Part shown: positions 27,569 through 64,000 of the stretch, piece by piece | Layout: each line of letters starts with the position of its first letter | Numbering within the stretch: position 1 is the first letter of the stretch | Translations under genes and position numbers: made by a program | Notes under the pieces: generated by a model | The model's input: only the letters and a program-made list of their open reading frames with translations | Databases searched by the model: none | What the model was told of the DNA's origin: nothing | Assembly (NCBI GenBank): GCA_028704635.1 | Contig: JAQWFB010000002.1 | Span: forward strand, 64,693 to 128,692 | Direction of reading: 5' to 3' | Length of the DNA stretch: 64,000 nucleotides | Source of the DNA: Candidatus Shapirobacteria bacterium | GTDB taxonomy: Bacteria; Patescibacteriota; Microgenomatia; UBA12405

Positions 27569-27618
27569 ATCTAAAAACAGTCACGTTCTCCCTCTCCATG
27601 TTATCCTTTTTATATATA

Positions 27619-33140: not shown

Positions 33141-33204
33141 GAATCCCCTCCCCATGTTATCATTTTTATATATAAAACCTCGTATTTTAAACCCACCCAG
33201 TCTT

Positions 33205-33252
33205 CGACCACCCTCCCTTTTCAAGGGAGGAAGGGGCCCTTTAGGGAAGATG
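33205..33252. repeat. Degenerate solo copy of the DUF559-associated double-hairpin element.
   Basis: CCTCCCTTTTCAAGGGAGGAAGGGGCCCTTTAGGGAAGATGGGTTTTAAAC has the same structure as 61452-61497. Confidence 0.6.
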
Positions 33253-33267
33253 GGTTTTAAACATTAA

Positions 33268-38406: not shown

Positions 38407-38417
38407 ATTGTTTTGTT

Positions 38418-38445
38418 GTAGGGGCCAGGCATGCCTGGCCCCTAC
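38418..38445. repeat. REP-like perfect palindrome (family 1).
   Basis: GTAGGGGCCAGGCATGCCTGGCCCCTAC immediately after the stop of paralog 2. Confidence 0.85.
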
Positions 38446-38466
38446 AGAATTCCCATTCTTGTCCTT

Positions 38467-38494
38467 GTAGAGACGCACGATCGCACGTCTCTAC
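38467..38494. repeat. REP-like palindrome (family 2): GTAGAGACGCACGATCGCACGTCTCTAC.
   Basis: Stem GTAGAGACG/CGTCTCTAC. Other copies at 38765-38792, 39047-39074, 41267-41294 and 63919-63946. Confidence 0.85.
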
Positions 38495-38642
38495 AAAATA
38501 AAACCCCCTCCATTTCTGGAAGGGATTTTCCGATGTTTTCCTAATGGATCTACACCAAACTTACCATTCAAGCTAAATTATAATCTATAAAATTGACAAG
38601 TCAATAACCAATTTGTAATTAATAAAACAAATTAAAATGTTG

Positions 38643-38712
38643 TGGACCTGAAGGGAATCGAACCCTCAACACCAAAATGGTAAGTTTGACACTCCCACCA
38701 GGAAACAGGCCC
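38643..38712 (-). tRNA. tRNA-like gene of 70 nt with an irregular anticodon arm and D-arm. The isotype is unresolved and it may be a pseudo-tRNA.
   Basis: On the minus strand it reads GGGCCTG..tt..TCCTGGTGGGAGTG..CAAActtaccatTTTG..GAGGGTTCGATTCCCTT..CAGGTCC-A. The acceptor stem is perfect with one G-U pair and the T-arm GGTTCGATTCC is canonical. The anticodon loop would be CTTACCA(T), with a pyrimidine at 37 or an 8-nt loop, and the D-stem is poor. Confidence 0.45.
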
Positions 38713-38764
38713 ACACAAATTAATAATAACTTTTTATGATAAATATTACAATTATTTAACCATA

Positions 38765-38792
38765 TAGAGACGCGCCACCGGCACGTCTCTAC
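38765..38792. repeat. REP-like palindrome (family 2).
   Basis: TAGAGACGCGCCACCGGCACGTCTCTAC. Confidence 0.8.
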
Positions 38793-39046
38793 TAATTTAA
38801 TATGTCTCTCTCCCCATAATATTCATTTGTTCCATCTATCACAAAACTCTCTCTACGATCTATCCCTTACAATCTAAATCCTAATTTATCCCTTGTCTCA
38901 AATACCAAACCTTTTTTTATCATTGATTAGCAATCATGATTAAATTCTGCCACCAAAAATCACTTTAGTACATCAAAAATAAACAAAAACAAAACTAGAC
39001 CATCAAATTTTTTATTTTAAAAAATATCTTATAAAAAACCTAATCC

Positions 39047-39074
39047 GTAGAGACGCCAGATCTGGCGTCTCTAC
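39047..39074. repeat. REP-like perfect palindrome (family 2).
   Basis: GTAGAGACGCCAGATCTGGCGTCTCTAC. Confidence 0.85.
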
Positions 39075-39457
39075 AAAACTTAAATACATTTCTATAAAAT
39101 TAAAAACGTCTCAGCAAAATTATTTTCACACTCCATAAACACATCCTATAATTATTTTTCGTTATATACATCACATCTCTTTCTCTGAGATCTAATATCT
39201 ACGATCCAAATTCTAGTTTTACCCTTGTCTTAAACACCAAAACACCCTCCACTCTTCCCTAGCACCAACACCTTTAATTTGCTAAGAAAAATCAAATAAA
39301 CACATCAAAAACAAACAATTAAAAGCATTGTGACTCAAAAATTAAATCAAAAATTTTGTCTTATAAATTTAAAATTTCGCAGTGGTGTATTTTTTGCGGC
39401 TTTGAACACGCCAGTATTCACGCAAGCAAAAAATATATAACGAGAAATCAAAAACCT

Positions 39458-39871
39458 CTATCTAAACGTCACTGTCACCGTTCCATTTAATGGCACCCCA
39501 CCAACCTGTGCCGTTAATTCATACTGTTGGGCCGTGTTCGATGTTAATTCAAAAGTTGCCTTACCCAAGCTATCCGTTGCTCCATCTAACTCTCCTAGCC
39601 CACTCAATTGAACTGATCTACCAACAATACCCTTTCCATCACTATCTAAAACAAAAACATTCACAATACACTTCTCATGACCATCTGCCTTAGCCATCAT
39701 TTTTTGACCAATCAACAAAGAATTCTTAATCGAAACTTTTCGAACCGTACTTGCTTTAGTTAAAGTTACTAATGCCTTGGGAATCACAGATGTTCCTAAA
39801 TAAACCACTGCTGCCATAGCCACTAAAAAACCAATACCACTGTATAATATGTTTTTTTTATCAGCAATCAT
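39458..39871 (-). CDS. Small membrane-anchored Big_1-like Ig-domain protein, paralog of 27155..27568.
   Basis: ADGHEKCIVNVFVLDSDGKGIVGRSVQLSG...ATFELTSNTAQQYELTAQVGGVPLNGTVTVTF aligns with the ORF at 27155. The start is taken at MIADKK. Confidence 0.5.
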   Translation of the reverse strand: MIADKKNILYSGIGFLVAMAAVVYLGTSVIPKALVTLTKASTVRKVSIKNSLLIGQKMMAKADGHEKCIVNVFVLDSDGKGIVGRSVQLSGLGELDGATDSLGKATFELTSNTAQQYELTAQVGGVPLNGTVTVTFR

Positions 39872-40442
39872 CTTAATAAATAATAGCACAAAAAAACAAT
39901 ACAAGCACTAAAACCATCCATTTAGCAAAAAACTAGCTTAACTGCTAACCTTTAATAAATTTAAAAACACACCTAAAAACAGGCATATTTAATCTAAAAA
40001 TTAAACCTAAAAATCAAAAAAAATCCCAAAACTAATTTTTTTTCCCAAAAAGGATACAAATTACCTCCCTCTAACTCTTTATATATCAATATAATTCATC
40101 GTATCTTAAGCAAAATTTACTAAAAATTAATTCAATCTTAACTTTTAATTTAAAAAATTTTTATTTTTTTACTAAAAAAATCACTTCCTAATTAGCTTTT
40201 TGAAATCATCTTTGTACCCCTAAAGTATATCATTTAATATCTTTTAGAGTTAACCGCATTTCTCCGCATTAATAAATTTTGTCAGCTCGTATTAAGTTGT
40301 ATTTTGATTTCATTTATACCACATTGATAGTAGGTGCACCACCTGTGTTAACTATCGTGAAACTATTTTTTTTAGAAAAAAAATAAAAAAAATTGAAAAA
40401 CATACTATCAAAACATATCAGAAAAACGTCAAAAACGCCCTA

Positions 40443-40471
40443 TTGACAGGCTTTTTCTAATAGTAGATATT
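40443..40471 (+). promoter_or_regulatory. Candidate sigma70-type promoter upstream of the giant-gene operon.
   Basis: TTGACA (40443-40448), then 17 nt, then GATATT. It lies in a roughly 700-bp AT-rich leader. Confidence 0.25.
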
Positions 40472-40640
40472 ATTATTATATTAATTATTAATATATATAA
40501 ACCATGTATAAATCATATAATTTTGAACCTAAATCATTATCACCGCAAAAAAAATTTAATCTTAATCAGATGGCTGAAAGATTAGTTCCATTTTTAATCA
40601 TTGCTACCACCTTTGTTTGGCTCTGGAAATAGTCCTTTTT

Positions 40641-41099
40641 ATGACCGCCCCCATCATTGTCTCCTATCAAAACTGGCTCAAATCCAAGTCCTACTCTGAG
40701 GCCACCATTCGCAATTATCTTGCCGACCTCAAAAAATATTTTCTCTTCACTAATTCCAATGTTGATCAAGTCACCGACAAAATTTTCGATCAAGACAACT
40801 TGTCTTCCTATTTCCAAAACATCAACCAAGACTCCAACTACAAACGTTTTCTTGCTTCTCTTTCTAAATTCTTCCAATTTGCCTTAGACCAACACCTAAT
40901 TTCTGTCAATCCTTTCTCCAAAGCCCTTAAAGTTGAACCCGAAATTGATCTCGAAGATGTTATCAAACTATATCAACAACAATTAGAGACCAAAAATTTT
41001 TCTCTTTCGACTATTCGAAACTATATCAATGACATTCATCAATTTATTAATTGGGCACAAAATGAAAGTCGCCCTGTTAAGGAAGATGTCACTAAGTGA
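40641..41099 (+). CDS. Protein made of two phage-integrase N-terminal SAM-like (core-binding) domains, with no catalytic domain.
   Basis: YQNWLKSKSYSEATIRNYLADLKKYFLF and LYQQQLETKNFSLSTIRNYINDIHQFINWAQ match the [YF]..L...S..T...Y...L..F..F pattern of the XerC/D N-domain. The ORF track opens at TTG 40617; ATG 40641 is preferred. Confidence 0.5.
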   Translation: MTAPIIVSYQNWLKSKSYSEATIRNYLADLKKYFLFTNSNVDQVTDKIFDQDNLSSYFQNINQDSNYKRFLASLSKFFQFALDQHLISVNPFSKALKVEPEIDLEDVIKLYQQQLETKNFSLSTIRNYINDIHQFINWAQNESRPVKEDVTK

Positions 41100-41114
41100 C
41101 AGAGGGTTTATTCA

Positions 41115-44100
41115 ATGGATTTAAATAAATTATTTAATCAATCCAGGTTTAACGAATACGCTGCTTTTCTAAAAAGCACCAATCTTTCTGATGCCAGCAT
41201 CCAACGTAAACTTTCTTCTCTTGCCTCTTTTCAAAAATTTCTGATTAAGAAAAAATATGTCTCTTTCGTAGAGACGCACGATCGCGCGTCTCTACTTTCA
41301 ATAAGCGAACATGCCGATTCACTCATACCAAAAACCTCACTTTTTTCCAATCTAAAATCAAAAATAAAATTACCACCCGTCATTGACGATTTACGATCAA
41401 ATTTTCTCTTTCGCTACATAGTTATCTTTTCTCTTTTTGCTATTAGTGCCGGTTTAGGTTTTACTCTTTATCGCCAAGCTGTTCTTCAATCACAACAAAA
41501 TCTCGCTTATTCCACTGCCTCAGCCATGATTACCGGTGGCCGCTTTTTATCTTTTCAGGGTCGTTTAACCGACACCGCCGGTAATCCTATAATATCTTCG
41601 ACAAGTATAGTTTTTAAACTATATCCATCAGTCGGATCTGGTACTACTCTATACACTTCTCAAACCGGTAACAGTCAAACCGTCGTTCCAGATGAGAATG
41701 GTATTTTCTCTGTTACTATCGGTAGAAGCCATGGTACCACTATTCCTTCCTCTGTCTTTACTGAAAATGCCGAAGTCTGGTTAGAAATCACTGCTGGGGG
41801 TGAAACAATGAATCCCCGTCAACAAATTGCTACCGTTGGTTACGCTTTAAATTCAGAAACTTTACAAGGCCTTCCCCCATCTGCTAGCGGTACCAAAAAC
41901 ACAGTGCTAGTTATTGATGGTTTAGGTAATCTTAACCTTGGAGAAACCTCTCCTACTATTAAATCAACTTCTGGCACTCTCGGTATCGAGGGTCAAGCTG
42001 TTCTAATTAAAGCTTCTGATGGTTCCGGCGGTAATATTACCATCAACCCAGATAGTAATGGCGTTATTAACTTAATCACTGAGGGTACTGGTGCCACTGG
42101 TTTTATCAATGCTACTAATGCCAACCTTGCTTCTGGTAATTTATTTAATGCCACCATAAATAATCTTAATCGTGGCTACAATTTCATTAATTTCAGCAAT
42201 TATAGTGTTGGCACTAGTATTGTTTCCCGTTTTTCAGTTGATGCCTACGGCAACACCATTATTGGTAATAATTTAACTATCGGAGGCACATTTGTATCAG
42301 TTGGATCTACTAATTTGGTTACTAAACTAAACTCTGATCTACTTGATGGTCATCATTCTTCATATTTCCTTAGCGTTGGTGATACTGGATCACTTCCTTA
42401 TGTCAACGATGCTACCAACACTACCCTTACTCGATCTGGCACTTCTGGTCCTTATACCCTAGGTCTTAATCTTAATAATACTAACACTTGGACGGCTATT
42501 CAAAATTTAAGTGCTGGTGCCACTATCTCCAACTTATCTGTTGGTGGTACTTTTATTTCAGTTGGTTCTACTAATTTAGTTACTAATCTTAATGCTGATT
42601 TATTAGATGGTAATAATTCCACTTATTTTGTCAATATTGGCCAAACTGGTAATTTTATTACTACTATTACCGGTGTTGGTATTTCTGTCTCCCCTACCTC
42701 TGGTACCAGTAGAACACTTACTAACATGGGCATTATGAATGCTACTAATGGAACTTTAACCAGATCTGGTTCCATTGGTTCTTATACTTTAGGATTAAAT
42801 CTCAACAACTCTAACACTTGGACGGCTATTCAAAATTTAAGTGCTGGTGCCACTATCTCCAACTTATCTGTTGGTGGTACTTTTATTTCAGTTGGTTCTA
42901 CTAATTTAGTTACTAATCTTAATGCTGATTATTTAAACGGTCTTCCTTCTAGTAGTTTTGTTGGTATTGGTTCCACTGGTAATTTCATCACTAATTTAAC
43001 CAATGGAGTTGGTATCACCATCACTGGTTCTGGTTCTTCTCGTAATATTGCTTTTGATTATGGTGCTTCCTTGTTAGCTACTGGCAATAAGATTGGGCTA
43101 AATTTTGGATCAATTAATACTTGGACGGCTAAACAAACTTTTGGCAACGCTGCTATTGGTGGAACTTTAGCCTTAACCCAAGGAGCTCAAGATGGTTATA
43201 TTTTAACCAGCGATGCCAGTGGTAATTCTTATTGGGCACCCAACACTGGCGTCGGAACAATCTATTTTGCTGGCAGTGGTTTAACTCTAACTGGTACTAC
43301 TTTTAAGCTTGGCGGTGCCCTTACTGAAAATGCTAATTTAACCATCGGTAACACTTCTGCTTTCTTTATCAATTCCACCACCGGCAACGTCGGCATTGGC
43401 ACCACTAACCCAAATAGGGCATTAGAAATTATGAAACAAGTTGATGGTGAAGTTCAATTAAGATTAGGTAATGGTCCAACTACATTTTGGGATTTAGGCA
43501 GAGATGGTTCAGACGGATATTTTAATATTAAAGATCAAAACGGAGCTAAAAGATTAGTTATAAACGATATTTCTGGCAACGTCGGCATTGGCACCACCAA
43601 TCCAACTTCAAAATTAACAGTTGCTGGTAATGTCAATATTTCCACCTCTCTCAATGTCGGCACCTCTCTTGTTGTCGGAACCAGCATTGAATTAAGCAGC
43701 AGCGGTAATAGATCTCTCAGTTATTACGACTCATCCACTAACGGTTATTTCACTCAAATGCAAACCACTGCCACTGGCGGTTATGGAACTTATGGCCCAG
43801 TTTCTGGTGACTGGGCTCTTTATAATCGATTTAGCGGTGCCAACACTCGTGGTTGGATTTGGCAACTTGGCACTGTCAATGTCGCTGGACTAAATGGCAA
43901 AGGTGATTTTCAAAACGCTGGTAATTTAACAGTCGGTGGCACTCTAAGTATTGGTTCTGTTCCAACTGCTTCAGATAATAATACTGTCTTAACTAGTGTT
44001 GGTGGAGTTGTTAGTTCAATTAATACTTCTGCTTGGGATAAAAATGCTTCAGATGATTTAACCACTTCTACCAATCTCTTTGTTATTAAAGCAGATAGTG

Positions 44101-47100
44101 GTACAGCCGAAACTCTCAATGTTGGTAACACTATTAACTTTGTTGGTGGTCTGGGATTAGGTTCTACCGTATCCGCTACTGACACTATTACCTTTAATAT
44201 TGGTTCTTCTGCTGGTATCTCTGTTAATACTGATACCATTGGTATCAATATTGGTCTTACTGGTTTAGGTTTCTCTGGTACTAAATTAATTAATACTGGT
44301 TTAGTTGGTGTTAGTAATAGCACTCTTACTCGTATTGGCAGTAATGGCAATTACACTGTTGGACTTAATTTAGCTAACATTAATACTTGGACAGCACTAC
44401 AAACATTTGGCAATGCTACTGTCGGTGGAACGTTAACCATGACTGGTACTAATGTTGGCACTGGTACTACTGCTTTATTTATCGCTTCCAATGGTACTGT
44501 TACTAAAAGAGCTTTAGGTACTATGGCTTTTGACTCTGGCACCTACGACAATTACAATCATTGGAAATTACAAACTAATAGTAATGGCACCACCAATGTT
44601 TTAACTGGTAATACTGTCAATTTTATTAATGGTATTGGCATCTCTTTAGTTCAATCTGGTTCTACTATTACTGTCAACAATATTGGTACTGGTACCACTT
44701 ATGCTGCTGGCGTTGGTTTAAGTTTAAGTTCATCAAATATATTTAGTATTGATTATGATTCCACCCTTGATTTGAATGGTAATAAAATTAGCCTTAATAC
44801 CGGTAACGCCAACACTTGGACAGGATTACAAACATTTAATGCTACTGGTGCTCCTTTTGCTGTTGGATCTAGTGTTTTAGTCACTAATCTTAATGCTCAA
44901 TATCTTAATGGTATTTCTTCTAATGGTTTTGTTGGTATTGGCCAAACTGGTAATTTTATTACTACTATTACCGGTGTTGGTATTTCTGTCTCCCCTACCT
45001 CTGGTACCAGTAGAACACTTACTAACATGGGCATTATGAATGCTACTAATGGAACTTTAACCAGATCTGGTTCCATTGGTTCTTATACTTTAGGATTAAA
45101 TCTTGGATCAAATAATAGCTGGTCTAATGGTATTGGTGTTAGTGGAACAACTAATCTAACCAATGCTTTAAATGTTGGTGGAACAGTCTACTTTGGTAGT
45201 TACGTTGGGATTGGAACAGCTAGCCCAAACAAACAACTTCAAATTGGATCCGCTGCTAATAATTCTTCTATTTATAACGATTATATTGGCAGTATAAATA
45301 ATATGGTTTTGGAATCCAGAGATAGTAATGACAGTGGTGCTTTTGTTTTCAGATCTAATAGCGATGTGGGTACTTCTGATTTAGTTCAAATCACTCGTCT
45401 CGGTTATGTCGGTATCGGAACCACCGCTCCAGGCTACAAACTTGATGTTTCTGGCACCGGTCGTTTTACTTCTAATTTAACAGTTGGTGGCACTTTAGCA
45501 CTAACTCAAGGTGCTGCTAATGGCTATATCCTTACTTCTGACACTAGTGGTAATGCTAAATGGTTACCTAATACAGGTATCGGTACCACTTATGCTGCTG
45601 GTGTTGGTTTAAGTTTAAGTTCATCAAATATATTTAGTATTGATTATGATTCCACCCTTGATTTGAATGGTAATAAAATTAGCCTTAATACCGGTAACGC
45701 CAATACTTGGACAGGATTACAAACATTTAATGCTACTGGTGCTCCTTTTGCTGTTGGATCAAATACTCTTGTAACTAATCTTAATGCTCAATATCTTAAT
45801 GGTATTTCTTCTAATGGTTTTGTTGGTATTGGCCAAACTGGTAATTTTATTACTACTCTAACTGCTGGCACCGACATCTCTATCACTGGTTCTGGTGTTG
45901 GTCGAACCATTAATGACACTTCTACTTTATCCACTGTTACTGGACGAGGATCTTCTACTTCTACTATGCTTTCTCTTCTTGGTGGAGCTTACTTTGGCAC
46001 TGCTGGTGCTACTCAAGGTGTTTGGAAGGCTAATGGTACGGTTGGGATTGGAACAACTAATCCTATATACGGTAAAGTAGAAATAACCACCACTGCTTCC
46101 AATACTGGTGGTTTAAGCCTTTATCGAGGCACTGGTAGCACTGCTAGATCTTGGATTACTTCCAATGATGTTTGGTTGATGCAAAGATCAACGAATGATA
46201 ATGCTGGTATTGCTATTGATGCTTCCGGTTATGTCGGTATCGGCACCACCGCTCCAGGATACCGATTAGACGTTTCTGGTACCGGTCGTTTTACTTCTAA
46301 TTTAACTGTCGGTGGTACAGTTTCTTTAACCGGTACTAATGTTGGCACTGGTACTACTGCTTTATTTATCGCTTCCAATGGTACTGTTACTAAAAGAGCT
46401 TTAGGTACTATGGCTTTTGACAGTGGCACCTACGACAATTACAACCATTGGAAATTACAAACTAATAGTAATGGCACCACTAATGTTTTAACTGGTAATA
46501 CTGTCAATTTTATTAATGGTATTGGCATCTCTTTAGTTCAATCTGGTTCTACTATTACTGTCAACAATGTTGGTGCTGGTACCACTTATGCTGCTGGTGT
46601 TGGTTTAAGTTTAAGTTCAAGTAGTGTTTTTAGTATCAATTTTGGCTCTGCCAACACTTGGACAGGATTACAAACATTTAATGCTACTGGTGCTCCTTTT
46701 GCTGTTGGATCTAGTGTTTTAGTCACTAATCTTAATGCTCAATATCTTAATGGTATTTCTTCTAATGGTTTTGTTGGTATTGGCCAAACTGGTAATTTTA
46801 TTACTACTATTACCGGTGTTGGTATTTCTGTCTCCCCTACCTCTGGTACCAGTAGAACACTTACTAACATGGGCATTATGAATGCTACTAATGGAACTTT
46901 AACCAGATCTGGTTCCATTGGTTCTTATACTTTAGGATTAAATCTTGGATCAAATAATAGCTGGTCTAATGGTATTGGTGTTAGTGGAACAACTAATCTA
47001 ACCAATGCTTTAAATGTTGGTGGAACAGCCTACTTTGGTAGTTACGTTGGGATTGGAACAGCTAGCCCAAGTTCCAAATTAGATGTCGCTGGAGCCATCT

Positions 47101-50100
47101 CTTTAATCCAAAATTATCCATTAATTATGAAAAGTGCCTCTGGAACCTACGGTGGCGCTATTCGATATGACACTCTTGGTGGAGAATTTATGACCATGGC
47201 CACTAAAAATTCTGCTTCAAAATTATTATTTGCCACCGGTTTTGATCTTACCGCCAGCCAAGGTTCTAGCAATATTCTTCCTACCACTGTTGGCCTAGCT
47301 ATTTACAACAATAATGTCGGCATCGGCACAACTAATCCAACTTCAAAATTAACAGTTGCTGGTAATGGTAATTTCACTGGCAATCTCTCTGTTGGTGGAA
47401 CAGTCACTCTCTCATCCTCTGTTGCCTCTAATACTAGTGACACCACTGCTTTAATGATTAATGGTAGTAATGTAGTTACCAAAAGAACTCTTGGTGATCT
47501 AGCTTTTCAAAATAATGCTTCTCTTGGTTGGATTGCTAAAACAGCTTCAGGTAACTTAACAATTGGCACTGGTACTACTCTTAACTTCACTGGTATTAAT
47601 GGTTTAACCACTGCCAATGTTGGTTCTTCTCAAATTACTTTTAGTTTAGGTGGTTTCCTTTCTCAAAATACTGATATTGGTTTCTCTGGTTTCTCTCTTA
47701 GTTTTTCTGATGGTGGTAATACTTTAGTTTCATTTTCTTCTACTGGTAATACTTTCTATAATCCAACTACCTTTACTTCTAGTGGTGATGTATCTATTGC
47801 TTATGATTTGAATTTTACTAATTCAAATAATTCAAATATTAATACTGCTGGTCCTTTCTCTATTAATGCTGGTGAAGTCTTTAATTCTAGTAATTTAACT
47901 CTCCAAACTTATAACTCTGGAAAAATAATTCTTAATTCTAGTAATCTTTACACTGATGGCACCTATTTCGGTATTGGTACTACCAATCCAACCAGCACTC
48001 TTAGTGTTAATGGTAATGCTGATATTAATAATTTAGTTATTGATGGCACTTCTGGCACTGGATTAAATATCTCTAATAACAGTCTTACCACAGATATTAG
48101 TCTTCAGAATGGTGAAACTATTGATAATGACACTAATGGAAGAATTAACTTCTCTATTAGTGATCTTTATCTTAATAGTAGTATTTTCTTAACTTCAACT
48201 AGATTATTCCAAGCTGGTAATGGTACCGTTACCACTCCCGCTTATTCCTTCTCTTCTGACACTAATACTGGCATATACCGTATTGGTGAAGATAATATTG
48301 GTGTTGGTACTAGCGGAATTTTACGTCTTACTGTAGCTGGTAATGGTAATGTTGGTATTACTAAAAATCTTAATGTGGGTGGCACCTTAACCACCACTAC
48401 TCTTAAAGCTACCAATGCTCAAGATACAACCAAAGTTACTAATTTAAATGCTGACTTGTTAGATGGTAATGATTCCAGTGTTTTTACCACTCATAATGAA
48501 GTGACTGATTTAGGAACAGTTACTTTTTCCTCAGGTTCAGCTGTTACCACTGCCACCTTTATTACTGAATTAGAAAACAAAGGTGCTTTTGATAATTATC
48601 ACAGTATAATGAAAGCTAGTTGGGATTATTCCGGCAATAGCGATATTACTGACACTGGTTTCGGAACTTTCGAATTAGCAGGATGTGTTGTTGAAACTTG
48701 GACAGATGATTCAAGCGATGTCACTAGAGGTAATATCACTGTTCGAATCACTAGACCAACTACTGGATCAGGAGGAGGTCAAATTTTGGTTTATAACGAC
48801 CAAGGATCAACCTATAGTCCCGGGTGGAGACAAATTTGGAATTCTAGTACTGACGGTTCCGGTTCTGGCCTTGATGCTGATTTATTAGACGGTCTTCATT
48901 CAACTGCTTTTGAAGTCCCATTAACCTTTACTAATGGTTTAACCAGAAGCAGTAATGATGTTCATTTTGGTGGTGCTCTTACTGAAAATACCAGATTAAA
49001 CATTGGCAATACCGAAGTTATGTTCTTCAAATATGCTAATGGCAATGTCGGTATCGGAACGACTAACCCATTAGCCAAATTAAATGTTTATGGTCAAAGT
49101 TTATTTGGAACTACTAGAACCGGAGTTGGAGCTGCCAGTTCTGTTATAAATTTAGGGTCAGATGAATATATTAATTTCGCATGGAGTACGAGTTACCCAA
49201 CTGGTAATTATCATAGAATTGGTAAAGATAGAACTTTTGATAATTATGCTCTATCCTATATTTCTACCGGAGCCGACGCCACTACTAATCTAGCACATGT
49301 ATTCCGAACCACCAACACTGATTCAGCATTAGCAATTACGGCTGGTGGTAATATTGGTATCGGTACCACCGCTCCAGGCTACAAACTTGATGTTTCTGGT
49401 ACCGGTCGTTTTACTTCTAATTTAACAGTCGGTGGCACTTTAGCACTAACCCAAGGTGCTGCTAATGGTTATATTTTACAATCCGATGCTAATGGTAACG
49501 CTAAATGGATTGTTCCCTATGGTGTTGGTGGTACTAATAGTCTTTCTGCTGGTACTGATATTTCTATTACTTCTGTTGGTATTGGTCGAACCATCAACAA
49601 CACTTCTACTTTATCCACTGTTACTGGACGAGGATCTTCTACTTCTACTATGCTTTCTCTTCTTGGTGGAGCTTACTTTGGTACTGCTGGTGCTACTCAA
49701 GGTGTGTGGAAAGCTAATGGAACAGTGGGAATTGGGACTACTAATCCAAGCGGTGGAAAACTTCAAATATTTGGAGAAGGTGCAGCTAATGGTTTAAGTA
49801 TTTATAACGGCACCGGTGACACACTCAGATTATACCGAGTCAATAACGTAGGTATTCTAAGCAGAGGCGGAGTCGATACTGCCGGAATTGCCATTAATGT
49901 TTCTGGCAACGTCGGCATCGGTACAACTAATCCAGGAGTAAAATTAACAGTCACTAGGGGAGGGGCAATTTATGACGCCGCTCCAACCCTCGGCAGTGGC
50001 ACTGTTGGAGTATTTTCACTACTCTCTGGTAATGGTCTTTATGGGTTGTATAGCGGTATTTCCTCAAACGGCGACACCTGGCTTCAAAGTCAGAGGAATG

Positions 50101-53100
50101 ACGCCACTACTGCTGCATATAATATATTACTTAATCCCAGTGGTGGTAATATCGGCATCGGCACAACTAATCCTCTTTATAAGCTTCACGTTTCTGGTGA
50201 TGCTTTAATTTCAACTCGATTAGGTATTGGAGTTACCAATGCTTCTTATGCGTTAAATGTTTCTGGTAATGGTAATATTACTGGCAAATTAAACATTGGT
50301 ACCACCACTACCACCACTTCTCTTAATTTAACTAATACGGCAGTTGGTGGTTCTTCTATTGCTGCTTTCTTAAGTGGTAATAGTGGTTTAATTGGTTACA
50401 TCAGTACAGTTGGTTGGGATAAGAATACCGCTGATGATTACACCTCTTGGACACTTCAAGCCGATGGTGCTAACGGTTCTTCGATTACCTCTGGGTCTAC
50501 AGTTAATTTCGCTCATGGCACTAATATCAGTTTAGTTAAATCTGGTAATACCATTACTATTAATAATACTGCTTCTCCTTACACTGCTTCTAATGGTTTA
50601 TCTTTGGTTGGTCAAGATATTAGACTTGGCGGCACCTTAACTCAAAATACCGATATTGGTTTCTCTGGTTTCTCTCTTAGTTTTTCTGATGGTGGTAATA
50701 CTTTAGTTTCATTTTCTTCTACTGGTAATACTTTCTATAATCCAACTACCTTTACTTCTAGTGGTGATATATCTATTGCTTATGATTTGAATTTTACTAA
50801 TTCCACTGCTTCTTATATTCGATCTCAAGCTCCTCTATATATTCAAACAGAAAGTCCATATGCTAATTTAGATCTTAACTTAACTGCTGCTAATGCCGGC
50901 CAAATCTATTTAAATTCAAATGTTCAGGCTATGGCTAATTTAACTGTTGGTGGTACCTTCACCTCAGTTGGTTCCACTAATTTAGTCACTAATCTTAATG
51001 CTCAATATCTTAATGGCATTTCTTCTAATGGTTTTGTTGGTATTGGCCAAACTGGTAATTTCATTACTACACTTACCAACGGCACTGATATTAATATCAC
51101 TGGTTCTGGGACTAGTAGAACTATTAATAATACTTCTACCTTATCCACTGTTACTGGACGAGGATCTTCTACTTCTACTATGCTTTCTCTTCTTGGTGGA
51201 GCTTACTTTGGCACTGCTGGTGCTACTCAAGGTGTTTGGAAGGCTAATGGTACAGTTGGAATTGGGACGACTGCTCCAGGATACAAACTGGATATAATCA
51301 ATAATTCAGCCACTCAATTACGAGTCGCATCAGGCGTAGGGCAATTGCAAGGTGGAATTAGATTTGGAAATTACGATGCAACTCAAACCGCTGATATTTT
51401 ATTTACAGCCTCAGGACAAAACAGTTTAGATATTAGAACAAATTATAGTAGTACAAGCAATAAGATTACATTAAGCCCAGGCACTGTCACAGCAATGACT
51501 TTATTGGGCTCCGGTTATGTCGGTATCGGTATTAATCCACTCTATAAACTTCATGTGTCTGGTGATGCTTTAATCTCTACTCGATTAGGCATTGGAGCCA
51601 CTAATGCCAATTTTGCTTTAAATGTTGTTGGTAATGGTAATTTCACCGACTCTTTAAGTGTTGGAAAAACCTTAACCACCACCACCCTTAAAGCTACTAA
51701 TGCTCAAGACACTACCGTTATTACTAATTTAAATGCTGATTATTTAGATGCCCAAAATGGAAGTTATTATGACCAGCGAGTCTACACTAGCACTAATAAT
51801 TATTTAGGTGGTTATTATGTTAGTGGTGGAAGCGAAAAACCAAATAATACTATTTTTGGTGCTGGAAAATTAAAGCTAGCCATGTTGTCGGGTACTAATC
51901 TTGGTTTTGGTGGTAGCTGGAACGATGTTTTATGGTTAAGTTCTTATACCGGCGGTGATGTTAAAGGAAGTTACGCCATCATTGCCGACAAATATTCTGA
52001 TAATCTTTATTTCTCTAGACAAGACTATGATAGTGGTACTTGGGGCACAGGTAATAAATTATGGCATTCTAATAATGATGGTATCGGTTCTAGCCTTAAT
52101 GCTGATTTATTAGATGGTCTTCATGCATCTGCTTTTCTAACTACTCTAACTGGTGGCACCGACATCTCTATCACTGGTTCTGGTGTTGGTCGAACCATTA
52201 ATGACACTTCTACTTTATCCACTGTTACTGGACGAGGATCTTCTACTTCTACTATGCTTTCTCTTCTTGGTGGAGCTTACTTTGGCACTGCTGGTGCTAC
52301 TCAAGGTGTTTGGAAGGCTAATGGTACAGTTGGGATTGGAACCACCAATCCTCTTCAAAAGCTTCAAGTCGCCGGAGATATTAATATAGAAAGTGGATCT
52401 GGAATAAGAATTAATAACACTGCTACTTCTGGGTATTATCTCCGAGGCAATGGCACTAGATTTGTTTCTTCAGGTATCCAAGCCGCAGATGTTCCAACAT
52501 TAAACCAAGACACTACCGGTTCTGCAGGCACATTATCACGCGAAGACAACCGAACTATTTCACCAAGTGAATTAACTGCTGGAAAATTAAAATTCGGTTT
52601 CACTTCCTACACCAATAACGATACCGGCCCTTATGCAGACTTCTTACATTTTAGATCCTATACTGATGCTACAGGTGGTAATGACAACCTTTTAGTCTTA
52701 AACAAGACTGATTTTGGCATGAGGTTATACCAACAAACTTGGGGCAGTGCTTCTGCATATTCTACTTACAAAGATATAGCCTTAGTCGATAACGGTGCAG
52801 CTTTAAATTATCTTCCAAAATTTTCTGGAGTTGGCACTAATGTGAGAGTAACCAATTCCTCAATCTTCGACAATGGCAACGTCGGCATTGGCACTACTAA
52901 TCCAAGTTATAAACTAGACATTCAAAATACTAGTACTAGTATGGCTGTTAATATAGGATCGGTAGCTCAAACTCTATACAGCGATCTAGTTTTACACACC
53001 AATGGTGGTTCTGGTGAAATATTTAAAGCTGGTTCCGCTTACACTTCTTGGGGTGGTCCCTCATCTCTTAATATTTATAACAGCTCTGGCCCAATTGCTT

Positions 53101-56100
53101 TCCATTCCAACGGTACTGTTAATTCTATGTTTTTATCCACTGCCGGTAACTTAGGTATCGGTACTACTGCTCCAACCTCTAAATTACATGTCATTGGTAA
53201 CGGTAATATCACTGGTAATTTAACAATCGGTGGCACAGCTACCATCCCCAGAATTTTTATTAATAGAACCAGTAATACCGCTTCTGGTTTAAGTTGGTAC
53301 AGTCCTTCTTATACAGCTTGGTCAGAATATATGGGTCCAGCTGGCACAGCTTCCCAAGGACCAACAGGTAATATTACTGCTCCAACAGGAACATTAGTTA
53401 CTACTTGGGGTTTACGTAGTTTTATTGAAAATGCTAGTGGATATGGTTGGACATGGGAATCTGGAACAAGTGGCACCACCGCCCCCTCAATCGTAGCCGA
53501 ACTTTCATCCAATACTGGCAATTTTAAAACTATTGGAGCTGGAAATTTTGGCGGCAATCTTACTGTAGCCGGTGAAACTTATCTTAACGGTACTGTTCTC
53601 GAAGGAGACTCAAAAACCATGTTCCGTTATTCTGATAGTTATCTTAGACTCAACGAAGACAACGATTTTGGTAATGGTATCTGGACTGGAAATAGTAACT
53701 ATATGACTGGATCAGGATATATATCTCTTGGTTCAAACGGCGGCACAACCACTGGATCAATGTATTTATACGGCGGTGCTTACACCGGCACAAACTTAAT
53801 TAAACTTGATTCCAGTAGCACTTCTGCTATTTCTTATTTCAATGCCGGCAACGTCGGCATCGGCATCACCAATCCTCTTTATAAATTATCCGTCGGCACT
53901 TCCATCGGTGGTGATATTAATGGTAATTTAATGGCCCTTAGATTTTTAGACATTGGCAACACTCGTTATGGTTTCATCCCAAACAACACAGCATCCAATA
54001 AAAATTCTTTGTCTCTCACTTACACTGGTTCCATCAGATTTAATTACAATGACATCAGTAACTCTCATATCATTGCCGGTCCTGCCTCTCGTATCCAAAG
54101 TTTTTCTAATGGTCTTTTACTCGGCGTCAGTTCTACTACCACCGGCAATGTTGCTGGTTGGGATAATGATCTTTTCTTAAAAACGAATGGCAACGTCGGC
54201 ATCGGCACCACTGCTCCAGGAAGCAAATTAGATGTTGACGGAAATATTACCCAATCAGTCACTCATGGTAATAATATGAAATTATGGTTATCTGCAGCCA
54301 GAAATGGTAGTGGAACTGGAGAAATTGGTCTCTATTCATGGATTAGTGAACCAGGTATGACTTGGACTGGAGGGGGTATTGCTCGCAATATGTACAATAA
54401 TACTAGTTTTCCAAGAGTAAACACGGCACTATCTGGACAAATGTTACATTTCACCGAATCTGGAAACATTGAATTCGTTCTTACTAATACTTCAGGAACA
54501 CAAATTACCCCTATGACCATCCAATACAATAGTGGCAACGTCGGCATCGGCACAGCTAGTCCAAATCAAAAACTAGTTGTCACCGGAGGAAATATTGCTA
54601 TAGAGCAGAATTATCAATTTAATTTAAGCGTTGGTGATATTGGAGCTGCCTATTTAACTTATCCAAATTCTACAATAGGAGCAAAGCTTTATAGTTATTA
54701 TGATATCAACCTAACGACAAGATCAGGCGGTGGACTTACTATTGATGGTGCCACCGGCAACGTCGGTATTGGCACCACTGCTCCTAGAAGCAAACTAGAA
54801 GTCGTTTCTGGTACTCCAAATACCGATGCTGATTTATCTGGTACTGCTGGCAGTTTCAATTCTGCCACTCCAACTGGTCAAAGTTCAACTTTAAGTATAG
54901 AAAGTAATGATACTATAGCTGTTAATACTGGAGGTGTTCTTGGTTTTGGTGGTCGATACTCAGGCACTGCCTACGCCAATTGGGCCTCAATCAAAGGTTT
55001 AAAAGCCGATGGAACTTCTGGAAACTATGGTGGTTATCTTTCATTTTGGACTCGTCAAACCGGAGCTGGAAGTGTCGAAAGAATGAGAATTTCAGATGCT
55101 GGCAACGTCGGCATCGGCACAACTAATCCTGGAACCAATCTTGACCTTAATGGCACTTTCCGCCTCAATAACAATATATACCTCAATTCCGGCATTGCTA
55201 ATTTTTCAAATCTTGGTGATGTTGTTAATTTTAATAAATACCTCGGATCTAATACTACTCCCTCTTGGTCTACTGGGACTGCTGGTGGTACTGCTCGTTA
55301 CTCTCATTCTTCTGTTCTCTATAATGGTAAAATCTACTCTTGGGGAGGATCTAATGGTGCTCCTTTAAACACTGTTGACATCTATGATATTGCCTCTAAT
55401 ACCTGGTCTACTGGTACTGCTGGTGGTACTGCTCGTAATTATTATTCTTCTGTTCTCTATAATGGTAAAATCTACTCTTGGGGAGGATCTAATGGTTTTT
55501 CTTTAAACACTGTTGACATCTATGATATTGCCTCTAATACCTGGTCTACTGGTACTGCTGGTGGCACTGCTCGTTACGCTCATTCTTCTGTTCTCTATAA
55601 TGGTAAAATCTACTCTTGGGGAGGATATAATGGTTCCTTTTTAAACACTGTTGACATCTATGATATTGCCTCCAATACCTGGTCTACTGGTACTGCTGGT
55701 GGCACTGTTCGTTACCAACATTCTTCTGTTCTCTATAATGGTAAAATCTACTCTTGGGGAGGATTTAATGGTTCTAGTTTAAACACTGTTGACATCTATG
55801 ATATTGCCTCCAATACCTGGTCTACTGGGACTGCTGGTGGTACTGCTCGTTACTCTCATTCTTCTGTTCTCTATAATGGCAAAATATATTCTTGGGGAGG
55901 ATCTAATGGTTCTAGGTTAAACACTGTTGACATCTATGATATTGCCTCTAATACCTGGTCTACTGGGACTGCTGGTGGCACTGCCCGTTACGGTCATTCT
56001 TCTGTTCTCTATAATGGCAAAATATATTCTTGGGGAGGAACTAATGGTTCTTCTTTAAACACTGTTGATATTTATGATATTGGTAATCGTCAAAACATTC

Positions 56101-59100
56101 TTTCCATTCAAGAAAATGGACAAGATATGCTTAATTTCACCACTAATTCCACTCTCTTCACAAACTCTGGTCGCTTCTCCATTATGGGTGGCAACGTCGG
56201 CATTGGCACCACCGCTCCTTCTGCCCGCCTCACTGTCCTTGGCGATGGTAGTTCCGCCACTTCCGATTTTACTTTATTAAACAACAATGGTTCCGTTAAT
56301 CTCGAAATCCGCACTGGACTAACTGCTCTCTTTAATACTTTTATTGGAGTTGGAGTTGGTAGTTCCAACACCACCGGCCACTACAACACCGCTAATGGCA
56401 GTTATTCTCTTGCTTACAACACCACCGGCTACTACAACACCGCTAATGGTTTTCAATCTCTCTACTCCAACACCACCGGCTACTACAACACCGCTAATGG
56501 TTTTCAATCTCTCTACTCCAACACCACCGGCCACTACAACACCGCTAATGGCAGTTATTCTCTCTTTTCCAACACCACTGGCCGCGACAACACCGCTAAT
56601 GGTTTTTATTCTCTTTTTTACAACACCACCGGCTCCAACAACACCGCTAATGGTTTTTATTCTCTTTTTTACAACACCACCGGCTCCAACAACACCGCTA
56701 ATGGTTTTTATTCTCTTTTTTACAACACCACCGGCTCCAACAACACCGCCATGGGTTACAATTCTCTTGGTTCCGGCACCACCCTAAATTCCAACATCGG
56801 TCTTGGTTATTATGCTGGCTATAAACTCTCCGTTGGTTCCAGTAATATTTTCATCGGTAACAATAATGGTGCTACCGGTTCTTATGACAACCGTCTCTAT
56901 ATTGGTAATGGTTCAAATCCAATTATTTATGGTGATATGTCCACTGGAAACATCGGCATCGGCACCACCAATCCCCTCGAAAAATTAACAATTTCAGGAA
57001 GTGGTGCTGACGTACTTAGTCTAAAAGGTAGTGCTGGTACTAGATTTATTTTTAATGAGACTTGGAGTGGAACAGCTGATATTTTAGGAATTCGCAACAG
57101 TAACACTTCTAATCCTCAAGTTGTTCTTGATTGGAATGGCAACGTCGGCATCGGCACCGCCAACCCTCTTTTTAAAACTGAAATCTATGGCACTACACAA
57201 CTAACAGGTAATTTAACTGATGCTGGTAATCGAGGTAGTATGCTTGCTCTTAATGCAGCTGATTCAAATTATGGTAGTGGTGGAGCTTTACTTTTTGGTA
57301 ATCAACAATCCGATATAGCTAACTCTATCGGTTGGGCTGCAATTAAAGGATTTTTAATAAACGGAAATGGTAATACAACAGGTGATCTTGCTTTTTCTAC
57401 TAGAAACTCAACAGCAGATACTGCCTTAACCGAAAGAATGAGAATTTTAGCAACTGGCAATGTCGGCATCGGCACTGCTAATCCAGGAACTTTATTAAAT
57501 ATCTCCCAATCTATTCCAACCGGCACAGGAGCAATACCTACAAATAGCGGTTTACTTTTAGATTCAAATTCAAATAATTACCTTACCTTTAGAAATACTT
57601 CAGATAACGGATCTTATGCTGGTTTACAATTTTTAGATAATAATGTCGGGGGTTATATTGCTTTTAGAAATGCTATTGCCGGAGGAGCACATACTGACAG
57701 TATGGTATTAGGAACCTATCAAGATTTCTATTTCCAAACTGGAGCAAGTGGTATCGTGGATGGCAAAACTGATGTAATGACAATAAAACAAGGTGGTAAT
57801 GTCGGCATCGGTACCACTAATCCTGGCACCCGATTTGCTGTTGCTGGTCTTACTGGTACTACTGCTGGAAGCTACCTCCGTTATTACAACAACGATTTTT
57901 ATTACTATTCTTCCTCTGCTCGTTATAAAGATAATATTGAGGTTTTTAATGATGATTTCTCTAAAATCCTTAATATTGAACCTAAAATCTTCACCGACAA
58001 AGTCTCAGGCGAAAGAAATATCGGTCTTATCGCCGAAGAAATGGATGCCGCCGACCTAAAACACTTAGTCACTTATAAAAATGGCTTACCTGACACTGTT
58101 GAATATCAACTCGTTTCTGTCTACCTTCTTCAACTCGCCAAACAACAAAAACTCCAACTTGATAATCTTAATAATGACCTCACTTTAACTTCCACTGGCC
58201 AAATTAATGTCAATATGAATATTTCCGATGAAGTCCTCTCTTCTCTTGGTTATAATGGTGCCAAAAATGAAATCGAATCTGCCACCTATTCCATTACTGA
58301 TACTTTAGGCAACACCGTTTCTCGTATTTCTCAATTCAGCGAAATCGCTTCCGCTAAAATCAAAACTGGTCTCCTTTCCGCCACCAACATCATTACTAAA
58401 AACATGGTCGCTGAAAAAATCGTCTCTCCAAAAGCCACCATCAATCATCTTATTTCTACTGACATCCAAACCACTTCTGTCACCACCGAAGAACTAAATG
58501 CTCTACGATCTACGATCAACGATCTAACAGCTAACACTGCCACCGTCTCCACTCTTTATGCTGACAATATTATTTCCAAAGAAGGTTCCATTGGTGAATT
58601 AATGACCGCCAAAGTCAGTGCCCTCCGTGACGAACTTAAACAACTTGTAGAGACGCAACATGATGCATCTCCATCTGGAACCATCACTGGATCATCAATT
58701 CTTTCTCAATCTTCCGGCTGGGCAATGAATATTGCCAGTGATTCGGCAAAAATTACTGGTGACCTCGAGCTCGGCAACAGTCTCATTGTCGGCGCTAAAC
58801 TCACTGTCAACGGTGACACCCAACTCGGCAATGCCTTTATTTCTGGCACTTTCACTGCCGGCGAAATCGCCATTAAAGACAACTTTATCGAAACCACCAA
58901 CACCGCTCTCTATATCCAGCCATCACAAACTGGTTCAGTCCACATCATGGGCGACACTTTAGTCATCGCTGAAGACGGCAACATTCAAATCAATGGCAAC
59001 CTCACTGTTTCTGGCTCTCTCATGGCTAACCTCATTGTTGCCGACCAAATCCAAGCCAACAAATTAACTGCCAATGAAGTCTCTTCTAATGAAATAAAAA

Positions 59101-59438: not shown

Positions 59439-59443
59439 AAAGC

Positions 59444-59479
59444 AACTTTATAAACTTGATGAACTTTATAAACTTGATA
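59444..59479. repeat. Tandem 18-bp duplication in the intergenic region.
   Basis: AACTTTATAAACTTGATG followed by AACTTTATAAACTTGATA. Confidence 0.7.
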
Positions 59480-59488
59480 AACTAAATT

Positions 59489-60988: not shown

Positions 60989-61062
60989 TTTAAAACCCTC
61001 CGTCTCTCGCAAGCTCGATCCACCTCCCTTGACAGGAAGGCTTTAAATCTCAATAATTATTT

Positions 61063-61509
61063 GTGAGAGATATTACATGTGTTGAAATAATGACTCAAAA
61101 GGGAAACTTAAAATATCTAGAACAATTAAGATGGGCAGCCAAAATAAATAGACATAAAATGACTAAAGGTGAATCAAAGATTTGGTATGAATTCTTAAAA
61201 AATAGACCAATGAATTATAAATTTACCAGACAAAAACCATTGGATAGATTTATTTTAGATTTTTATTGTTCTGAATTATTATTAGTAATTGAAATTAATG
61301 GTGGATATCATATTAAAAAACAAGAACAGGATTCAAAGAGAGATAAATTTTTAAATTGTTTAAATATTAAAACCATAAGATTTAAAAATGAAGAAATATT
61401 AAATAATTTAGAAAAAGTTAAAAATGAAATAATAAAAAATATCCAAGAAAGAAAAGCCTCCCTGTCAAGGGAGGTGCCCAAAGGGCGGAGGGTTTTAAAC
61501 AATAAATAA
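61063..61509 (+). CDS. DUF559-family (Vsr-like) endonuclease-domain protein, paralog of 20462..20866. Its 3' end is fused to a miniature repeat.
   Basis: KFTRQKPLDRFILDFYCSELLLVIEINGGYH...RDKFL..LNIKTIRF. The last roughly 18 codons (ASLSREVPKGRRVLNNK) are the translation of the repeat at 61452-61497. Confidence 0.8.
   Translation: MRDITCVEIMTQKGNLKYLEQLRWAAKINRHKMTKGESKIWYEFLKNRPMNYKFTRQKPLDRFILDFYCSELLLVIEINGGYHIKKQEQDSKRDKFLNCLNIKTIRFKNEEILNNLEKVKNEIIKNIQERKASLSREVPKGRRVLNNK
61452..61497. repeat. Double-hairpin miniature repeat (DUF559-associated): GCCTCCCTGTCAAGGGAGGTGCCCAAAGGGCGGAGGGTTTTAAAC.
   Basis: Hairpin 1 is CCTCCCTGTCAAGGGAGG, hairpin 2 is GCCCAAAGGGC, and the tail is GAGGGTTTTAAAC. 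A near-identical copy lies at 63957-64000, with degenerate copies at 61600-61730, 33205-33252 and 21003-21050. Confidence 0.85.
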
Positions 61510-61730
61510 TTCCTTATTCTAAGGGATCAGTTCCCCGCTAACACGAAGAATATAGTAATTCTGGATCAAGTGAGGTGTATTCCGATAAAATCGGAAGACG
61601 GAGGGTTTTAAAATAAAAGAGTTTCCAAACCAAAAACCTCCCTTTCGGGAGGTTTAAAAATTTTTTAATTTCTCTCCTTGTTAAGGAGAGAATCCGGTTT
61701 ATCCGGAGAGAGGTTTTAAATTGAGTGGTT

Positions 61731-63887: not shown

Positions 63888-63918
63888 TTCCCCGCATTTT
63901 TATCGCTTATGGTTTTTT

Positions 63919-63946
63919 GTAGAGACGTTCTGCAGAACGTCTCTAC
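63919..63946. repeat. REP-like perfect palindrome (family 2).
   Basis: GTAGAGACGTTCTGCAGAACGTCTCTAC. Confidence 0.85.
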
Positions 63947-63956
63947 TGATAAAAAT

Positions 63957-64000
63957 TAAGCCTCCCTGTCAAGGGAGGTGCCCGAAGGGCGGAGGGTTTT
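63957..64000. repeat. Double-hairpin miniature repeat, a copy truncated by the window end.
   Basis: AGCCTCCCTGTCAAGGGAGGTGCCCGAAGGGCGGAGGGTTTT. Confidence 0.8.

Follow-up and report, generated by a model that had tools for sequence, protein, structure and literature searches.

Long internal DNA repeats in a giant gene for a probable surface fiber of a Candidatus Shapirobacteria bacterium

Why should a single bacterial gene contain long, nearly identical stretches of DNA, and can a short-read assembly of such a gene be believed? The question was raised by a 64,000-nucleotide (nt) stretch of contig JAQWFB010000002.1 (here called the window) from a metagenome-assembled genome (MAG) of a Candidatus Shapirobacteria bacterium. 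An earlier reading, made from the letters of the window alone (the sequence-only reading), had listed seven examples of repeats at 42440 to 52360 within a giant gene. The gene was a single uninterrupted open reading frame (ORF) of ~18 kb that enclosed all of these repeats, and its product corresponded to MDD4382860.1, encoded on a 192,982-bp contig of a Candidatus Shapirobacteria MAG. GTDB genomes with matches to the gene downstream likewise pointed to Shapirobacteria. The repeats lie in frame and are probably coding modules that were duplicated recently within the gene for a giant surface fiber, one that is membrane-anchored and probably trimeric.

Repeats and domains of the giant protein

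Local alignment of each pair, all-against-all blastn, and a search for maximal exact repeats agreed that the seven examples were real direct repeats, all of them in frame within the giant ORF. Their positions had been given approximately, with errors of 10 to 60 nt and often a register shift of a few nt; taken literally, those positions gave ungapped identities of ~20 to 32% for all listed pairs but one. An identity of at least 95% had been assigned throughout; it held for the repeat cores and not for several of the pairs, whose true range was 84.5 to 99.8%. Positions 44808 to 45228 and 46650 to 47070 (421 nt) differed at one nucleotide (99.8%) and contained a perfect core of 379 nt (44808 to 45186 and 46650 to 47028). 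The remaining pairs included 44418 to 44757 and 46305 to 46644 (340 nt, 92.6%), 44679 to 44966 and 45570 to 45857 (288 nt, 95.5%), 47662 to 47840 and 50641 to 50819 (179 nt, 95.5%; 87% over 224 nt), and 42481 to 42600 and 42811 to 42930 (120 nt, perfect; 83 to 84.5% over 226 to 253 nt). In the four-copy module, the first and last copies were 97.3% identical and shared a perfect 174-nt repeat (45866 to 46039 and from 52154), with the other pairs at 84.5 to 91%.

Perfect matches of 120 to 379 nt cannot arise by chance in 18 kb. Every offset between ungapped repeat alignments was a multiple of 3, that of the single gapped pair being the exception, and repeats of at least 100 nt covered ~31% of the giant gene. 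Two further tandem arrays, missed by the sequence-only reading, were found 3' of its range with Tandem Repeats Finder (TRF). One (138 nt × 5.9, 55266 to 56082, ~92% identity) encoded Kelch blades; the other (51 nt × 7.5, 56366 to 56749) contained a 163-nt stretch with perfect periodicity.

At the protein level, the repeats formed a mosaic of modules of 40 to 170 amino acids (aa) recurring in varied combinations. The motif GxVGIGTT(N/A)P, followed by xxKLxV, occurred in 25 copies (pattern [GN]x[VILF]G[IV]G[TI][TAN][NASP]P). Motif copies were the exact start or end of repeat families at 45402, 46064, 49347, 49748, 51278, and 52352, and each copy of the four-copy module stopped exactly where a GTVGIGTT(N/A)P motif stops. 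A profile of the 25 motif-led segments matched six solved Bdellovibrio MAT chains in alignments centered on the motif, with E values including 1.7e-16 for 8ond (Bd2133), 1.3e-9 for 8ojn, 1.2e-5 for 8oml, 2e-4 for 8on4, and 2e-3 for 8ol4. The capping loop of trimeric beta-helix segments (V-G-G/N-pi-x-x-P-x-x-x-L; Caulton et al. 2024, PMC10769870) is this same motif.

A globular domain (aa 2476 to 2580) matched the Mu tail fiber (8ju3) in sequence (E = 4.8e-16) and by Foldseek (E = 1.1e-9, 37% identity), and it was the only part of an AlphaFold2 monomer run of its segment to reach a predicted local distance difference test (pLDDT) score of ~76 to 96 (mostly ~90); viral contigs in IMG/VR hold relatives of it. 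Across the whole protein, Pfam found just six Kelch blades and a Peptidase_S74 domain near aa 5600. No Pfam or NCBIfam match was obtained for aa 1 to 3000, and PHROGs gave only weak or unannotated matches to the protein. The six Kelch_1 motifs (6.5e-47, aa ~4700 to 4990) matched solved Kelch propellers strongly. Because the propeller makes up ~5% of the protein and had no tblastn match in any of the 58 related GTDB loci, the NCBI name, with its "kelch," describes an accessory domain only. The S74 domain (PF13884) scored 25.3 bits on the isolated segment (cutoff, 22) and 20.7 bits in the long query. It was matched in 10/10 aligned sequences (the window segment and nine orthologues; best, 5e-19), among which the presumed catalytic Ser and Lys were invariant. 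Searched alone against the PDB with phmmer, the region returned nothing; a profile of the orthologues was required, and this matched the phage tail-fiber chaperone domains 6f45 and 8jov and MyRF (7dc3).

Gly, Thr, Ser, and Asn together accounted for 49% of residues, with a single Cys. A lysine/arginine-rich N terminus of 96 aa preceded the sole strongly hydrophobic segment, aa 97 to 119 (Kyte-Doolittle windows of ≥1.6 only at aa 96 to 102), and a conserved region of ~300 aa followed this presumed helix. Identity over aa 1 to 400 was 51 to 91% in ~60 of 65 metagenome loci and 29 to 40% in the weakest. At the other end of the protein, the C-terminal region was kept in 55 of the 58 GTDB loci.

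These features suggest the following explanation. The fiber would consist of concatenated units like those of phage tail fibers or Bdellovibrio MATs, in which beta-helix-type segments each open with the capping-loop motif (GxVGIGTTxP-xxKLxV), binding-type domains (the Mu-S-like tip and the Kelch propeller) are set among these segments, and the C-terminal S74 chaperone/protease aids trimerization and then cuts itself off. Unequal homologous recombination and gene conversion between copies would duplicate, delete, homogenize, and exchange cassettes, preferentially at short conserved motif-coding stretches coinciding with domain boundaries; because such junctions would be in frame at domain boundaries, the recombined products would stay foldable. 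The likely use would be adhesion to a partner or host cell, and module turnover would alter binding specificity. We infer the trimeric state, S74 cleavage, surface exposure, and adhesive function of this fiber. The features are listed in Table 1.

Table 1. Features of the giant gene and its repeats (window positions)
Feature	Position	Strand	Evidence
Giant ORF, 6107 aa	41115..59438	+	ORF list, translation, exact look-up (MDD4382860.1, "kelch repeat-containing protein")
Presumed N-terminal membrane anchor, aa 97-119	41403..41471	+	Kyte-Doolittle scan
Conserved N-terminal extracellular region	41472..42404	+	aa identity and DNA colinearity in relatives
330-nt tandem pair (42433-42682 and 42763-43015), 83%, with perfect 120-nt core	42433..43015	+	Alignments
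Perfect 168-nt repeat, copy 1 of 3 (others 44936-45103, 46778-46945)	42635..42802	+	Exact-repeat search
Segmental duplication, copy 1, including 44808-45186	44418..45228	+	811/766-nt alignment, 90.9%, 45-nt indel
Third partial copy of duplicated module	45570..45857	+	95.5% to 44679-44966, 95% to 46650-46808
Four-copy module (others 49529-49748, 51059-51278, 52133-52352)	45845..46064	+	Alignments, motif scan
Segmental duplication, copy 2, including 46650-47028	46305..47070	+	Alignments, exact repeats
Two-copy module, partner 50620-50843	47641..47864	+	Alignments
Globular domain resembling phage Mu tail-fiber (protein S) tip, aa 2476-2580	48540..48854	+	PDB 8ju3, Foldseek, AlphaFold
Cassette swapped in L060; three motif-bounded modules, Kelch array, 51-nt repeats	54212..57800	+	Alignment to L060
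Kelch beta-propeller, six Pfam-detected blades	55128..56102	+	Pfam, PDB, TRF
17-aa repeats, YNTTGxxNTANGFxSLF, 51 nt × 7.5	56363..56783	+	TRF, alignments, exact repeats
Peptidase_S74 intramolecular chaperone/autoprotease domain, presumed catalytic Ser and Lys in SSARYK	57912..58058	+	PF13884, orthologue alignment, profile versus PDB
Conserved C-terminal region, released if S74 cleaves; ends in WWIIN	58059..59435	+	Conservation in GTDB loci

Variation and age of the modules

The sequence-only reading had proposed that the repeats provide a mechanism for modular variation by homologous recombination. Variation of this kind was found between strains and between species; the strain variant lay outside 42440 to 52360, and recombination is the mechanism that we infer for it. 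In contig 33 of GCA_028689945.1 (L060), from a strain ~97% identical to the window, positions 1 to 345 matched window positions 53867 to 54211 and positions 1664 to 7848 matched 57801 to 64000, with 1318 unrelated nt in place of 3589 nt of the window. Along with the Kelch propeller, the replaced stretch took in the greater part of the 51-nt repeats, and both breakpoints fell inside GNVGIGTT codons. Related species were 78 to 84% identical in DNA over the N-terminal part and lost colinearity at ~42.4 to 42.6 kb (about 42370 to 42630), beyond which they contained the same kinds of modules in other orders. The shortest complete orthologue had 1298 aa and the longest 6107 aa; their ends were conserved and their middle parts varied, and the longer ones had long internal repeats of their own. 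Homology-block ends coincided with the motif in 14 of 73 cases within the giant gene (5.2 expected) and in 24 and 36 of 294 cases across species (~9 expected).

The differences between copies bear on their age. Older copies differed mostly at synonymous or third positions (17 synonymous versus 8 nonsynonymous codons in one example and 20 versus 7 in another), a pattern that fits coding modules under purifying selection. Within the segmental duplication at 44418 to 45228 and 46305 to 47070, identity was uneven, with 25 mismatches in 340 nt followed by 1 in 421 nt (Fisher, P = 1.6e-8) and synonymous differences in 9/113 versus 0/140 codons (Fisher, P = 5.9e-4), which points either to gene conversion at a later time or to a more recent event. 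Copies within the gene were 87 to 99% identical in protein, and their best counterparts in other species were mostly 40 to 66% identical, with one module at 81%. The two-copy module at 47641, the best conserved between species (80 to 92% DNA identity in relatives), had orthologues 88 to 92% identical, more than the 87% between paralogues, so the duplication 47641/50620 arose before the related species diverged. As duplicates of fiber modules, the repeats are young and in frame, and homologous recombination would be the process that generated both the repeats and the module variation.

An improbable alternative is that these are passive structural repeats, domain duplications held by purifying selection without appreciable ongoing recombination or any role in functional variation. 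It would accommodate the identity of sibling MAGs throughout the repeat region, the age of duplication 47641/50620, and the many synonymous differences among most pairs (84 to 92% identity), which are not very young. Purifying selection spares synonymous changes, however, and yet 0/140 codons with such changes lie beside 9/113; perfect DNA runs of 168 to 379 nt are also present. The replacement of a cassette at motif codons in so close a strain, the reshuffling of module order between species, and the ~fivefold variation in gene length likewise argue against it.

Several observations weigh against duplicated and exchanged modules of a trimeric fiber as well. Where the sibling MAGs overlap, no strain variation was found within 42440 to 52360. 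Since L060 is ~3% diverged, its cassette could be an old allelic difference rather than the product of recent recombination, and its 1318 nt did not come from the giant gene's own modules (best internal match, 39% aa identity). Part of the excess of block ends at the motif is built in, since alignments run through any conserved motif; the endpoints are not independent, and just ~8 to 12% of cross-species block ends fell at the motif, so other junctions exist. Self-cleavage by S74 is unproven and its activity not assured, since the canonical SDxxxK is absent: the Asp is replaced by Ser in SSARYK, found in the window and its two closest orthologues, with SDxRxK in more distant ones. The monomer AlphaFold model had a pLDDT of <50 for about half of its residues; the values of ~40 to 55 outside the Mu-like domain are expected of an obligate trimer and are not evidence for one.

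A more far-reaching proposal, tentative and rather unlikely, is that the giant gene serves an episymbiotic bacterium of the candidate phyla radiation (CPR) as a contingency locus for recognizing partner cells, with the motif (~25 to 30 nt) and the repeats as recombination sites. If it were true, cells within a population would acquire, lose, and import receptor-binding cassettes, as happens in phage tail-fiber evolution, and each cell would bear a submicrometer "poly-tip" fiber whose specificity shifts on ecological time scales. Scaling from Bd3182, in which ~780 residues span ~550 Å (PMC10769870), ~5,500 extracellular residues would give a fiber of very roughly 0.4 µm.

Long repeats in a giant surface-protein gene are, as such, expected and would not surprise a specialist. 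The family is very large. The motif-module profile matched 146,787 cluster representatives (E ≤ 1e-3) among 1.84 billion proteins, including many proteins of 4 to 8 kaa with 40 to 78 modules; top members came from Taylorbacteria, Roizmanbacteria, Omnitrophota, and Burkholderiales MAGs and were nearly all annotated as hypothetical. The window protein is thus one of many in a family barely described beyond its ~1000-aa Bdellovibrio members. Giant proteins of CPR and other ultrasmall or predatory bacteria, numerous and almost without annotation, are thereby tied to their only experimentally studied relatives, the MATs and phage tail fibers, with a concrete, testable picture of binding-module exchange at the capping-loop motif. 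Were the contingency-locus proposal correct, the family would constitute a major class, as yet undescribed, of factors determining host range in ultrasmall and predatory bacteria.

Assembly risk and the case against programmed diversification

It is quite improbable that the repeats are an assembly artifact, with their order or number at 42.4 to 52.4 kb or in the 3' arrays wrong and copies collapsed or chimerically joined. The risk of misassembly that the sequence-only reading had raised is nonetheless genuine. As it had noted, the repeats are longer than short reads: those that match perfectly over 379, 174, and 168 nt surpass 150-nt reads and typical k-mers. Because the 379-nt and 174-nt pairs interleave (44808 < 45866 < 46650 < 52154), k-mers alone have a second path and permit two orders, and read pairs must have resolved the order. 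A misjoin through an in-frame repeat keeps the ORF whole, so ORF continuity is no safeguard. The same pipeline may also repeat the same error, and every assembly may have collapsed further identical copies.

The window was compared with two sibling MAGs from the same population, GCA_028681165.1 and GCA_028689945.1. Contig 25 of GCA_028689945.1 was 99.993% identical to 31333 to 44934 and ended there, exactly 127 nt into the 379-nt perfect repeat, a stop probably caused by a repeat that a k = 127 assembly graph failed to resolve. Contigs of related loci ended preferentially on the side of the giant gene. A contig end occurred only on the giant-gene side in 18 of 58 GTDB loci and only on the other side in 4 (P = 0.004); the corresponding counts among 65 JGI loci were 20 and 5 (P = 0.004). 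The giant gene reached the end of the fetched locus in 61 of the 65 JGI loci, mostly at contig ends, including those of 949-kb and 796-kb contigs. The break in contig 25 and the clustering of ends in these 123 loci bear out the predicted hazard. Short-read CPR assemblies can be expected to fail at the giant-gene family, whose gene lengths, copy numbers, and "partial" labels in MAG catalogs are untrustworthy without long reads.

For the window itself, the comparison was reassuring. Contig 2 of GCA_028681165.1 (49,100 bp) was 100% identical to 23268 to 48406, and a partial product of 4399 aa from that MAG equaled the translation of 41115 to 54311 residue for residue, spanning the whole range of listed repeats. 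Because a separate assembly gives the same product over 42440 to 52360, repeat order and number look correct, and the window sequence is probably not misassembled; the third assembly, GCA_028689945.1, agreed up to its break. Ordinary read pairs can reach across the 174-nt and 168-nt repeats, and the 163-nt periodic stretch is shorter than k plus the period (178), so it is presumably not a collapsed loop at k = 127.

The contig end of GCA_028681165.1 (window equivalent, 54311) lay 100 nt beyond the left breakpoint (54211) of the variable cassette. No exact repeat in the window explains this end, and two alleles coexisting in the sample may lie behind it.

Programmed diversification, with the repeats as template and variable repeats of a diversity-generating retroelement (DGR) or as substrates of a site-specific recombinase (the upstream "integrase" or a Mu Gin-like inversion), is scarcely credible and already largely refuted: CPR bacteria often carry DGRs, the ORF directly upstream bears a site-specific integrase annotation and has Phage_int_SAM domains, and the giant protein contains a domain like that of Mu tail-fiber S, which is switched by inversion in phage Mu, but all substitution types were present in 13 repeat pairs with no adenine-specific mismatch pattern (ruling out a DGR target), a search for reverse-strand matches found no inverted repeats inside the giant gene (ruling out an inversion or shufflon of the Mu G segment type), and the upstream ORF, of 152 to 160 aa, has N-terminal SAM-like domains only and no catalytic domain. 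Pfam gave no match to a reverse transcriptase among 17 scanned window ORFs, including all of those flanking the giant gene, a scan that left out 13 ORFs of ≥150 aa at 707 to 17318 and 21648 to 22181.

Genomic setting and comparison with known systems

The giant gene stands between genes for surface proteins (two encoding LamG/DUF2341 giants and one a Big_1 protein) and a gene for a TPR protein, an arrangement recurring in dozens of MAGs (many Shapirobacteria and some Woesebacteria), and no phage genes were found near it among the neighboring ORFs scanned. The two adjacent 5-kb paralogues (27598 to 32565 and 33268 to 38406; 1655 and 1712 aa) each encode DUF2341 and six Laminin_G_3 domains and share DNA blocks that are 74 to 87% identical. 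Together with a Big_1/invasin-like ORF (39458 to 39904, minus strand) and a WxL-interacting-like ORF (25194 to 26192), they form part of a 35-kb surface-protein island. The island is bracketed in inverted orientation by two paralogous DUF559 (endonuclease-like) genes, at 20462 to 20866 (minus strand) and 61063 to 61509 (plus strand), which are 74% identical over 219 nt. A 24-nt inverted repeat (61021 to 61044 and 61453 to 61476, 96% complementary) flanks the second of these, and the TPR gene contains further copies of it (59673 and 59835).

The giant protein and the adjacent TPR/membrane protein share a C-terminal tail, ...DIDINWWIIN* (59240 to 59438) and ...DIEFKWWIIN* (60790 to 60988), which may be a common sorting, anchoring, or partner domain. 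A C terminus of the form W[WFY][IVL][IVL][NDKE]* was present in 57 of 126 fetched related loci, with at least two copies in 32 of the 57.

Directly upstream of the giant gene, the small ORF at 40617 to 41099 encodes two N-terminal Phage_int_SAM domains (its NCBI name is "site-specific integrase," with 152 aa from 40641), and a domain scan of 40641 to 41099 found no catalytic domain. The same small ORF precedes the giant gene in the sibling MAGs. A similar Phage_int_SAM-like N terminus in the giant protein itself was considered and found to be unsupported (BLASTP, E = 0.47; nothing in Pfam). A GC-rich palindromic element, TTGTAGAGACGC...GCGTCTCTACAA, has two copies in the intergenic region between the LamG and Big_1 genes (38465 to 38494 and 39047 to 39076) and a partial third within the giant gene (58645 to 58671). 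A tRNA-like match at 38643 to 38712 (minus strand; 29.6 bits) was just at the Rfam threshold and was not called by ARAGORN.

Strand asymmetry was extreme. The plus strand had a GC skew of -0.19 over 1 to 64000 as a whole and of -0.3 to -0.57 within ordinary genes. Third codon positions had values of -0.37 to -0.83 in all 30 ORFs of ≥150 aa, in either orientation; since it is independent of ORF orientation, the asymmetry indicates a replication-strand mutational bias and not a coding bias. Should the leading strand be the G-rich one, transcription of the giant gene would run head-on to replication. Related loci in the same orientation had negative skew in 9 of 10 cases.

Among the closest known systems is the S74 subgroup of Bdellovibrio MATs. 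MATs split into S74 and non-S74 groups, and "tip swapping" has been proposed for their diversification (Caulton et al. 2024, PMC10769870). In Bd2133, GNVGIGATAPTAKLEV aligns with GNVGIGTTNPxxKLxV of the window protein. Both proteins have a C-terminal S74 chaperone/protease and a mosaic of fiber segments with phage-like or lectin-like binding domains, and both are cellular rather than viral and proposed to recognize other cells. The window protein is ~6 times longer (6107 versus ~1000 aa), with 25 motif-bounded segments and binding-type domains inside the fiber and not just at its tip. Its S74 motif is SSARYK in place of SDxxxK, and its gene contains long near-identical internal DNA repeats, which have not been described for MAT genes. 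The N termini are set apart by description, that of MATs having a signal peptide and a ~130-aa beta-rich domain that is conserved, and that of the window protein having a 96-aa N terminus and a helix. The organism of the window differs as well, being a CPR bacterium with no outer membrane.

Phage tail-fiber genes resemble the giant gene in that short conserved motifs flank variable cassettes and fall at exchange points; homology to the Mu tail-fiber tip and the S74 chaperone are shared as well. An S74 chaperone also occurs in the K1F endosialidase and the T5 L-shaped fiber. In T-even phages, recombination between conserved motifs of gp37/gp38 reportedly swaps adhesin specificity (a finding ascribed to Tetart et al., 1998), and mosaicism of P2/Mu/P1 tail fibers is said to have been described by Haggard-Ljungquist in 1992 and Sandmeier in 1994. 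The window gene differs in being chromosomal and syntenic across Shapirobacteria and some Woesebacteria, in encoding a membrane-anchored product with many modules concatenated in one polypeptide, and in standing beside surface-protein and TPR genes rather than tail or baseplate genes. Its main repeated block had no tblastn match in 50,697 GenBank phage records.

Giant, repeat-rich surface proteins whose genes fragment metagenome assemblies have been described in Omnitrophota (West-Roberts et al. 2023, bioRxiv 10.1101/2023.11.21.568195), and a Gracilibacterium's hypervariable repeat gene (Sieber et al. 2019, PMC6851277) and Giant1-5 of Apilactobacillus kunkeei (PMC12863079) belong to the same class of comparison. 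Like the window protein, these are very large and extracellular with an N-terminal anchor, their repeats break contigs so that genes run to contig ends, and attachment to other cells has been proposed for them. Their domain content (dockerin/thrombospondin, PTD tripeptide repeats, and others) is not that of the window protein, in which the repeats are a dispersed mosaic of 40- to 170-aa modules, mostly not a simple tandem array, within an architecture like that of tail fibers and MATs and ending with S74.

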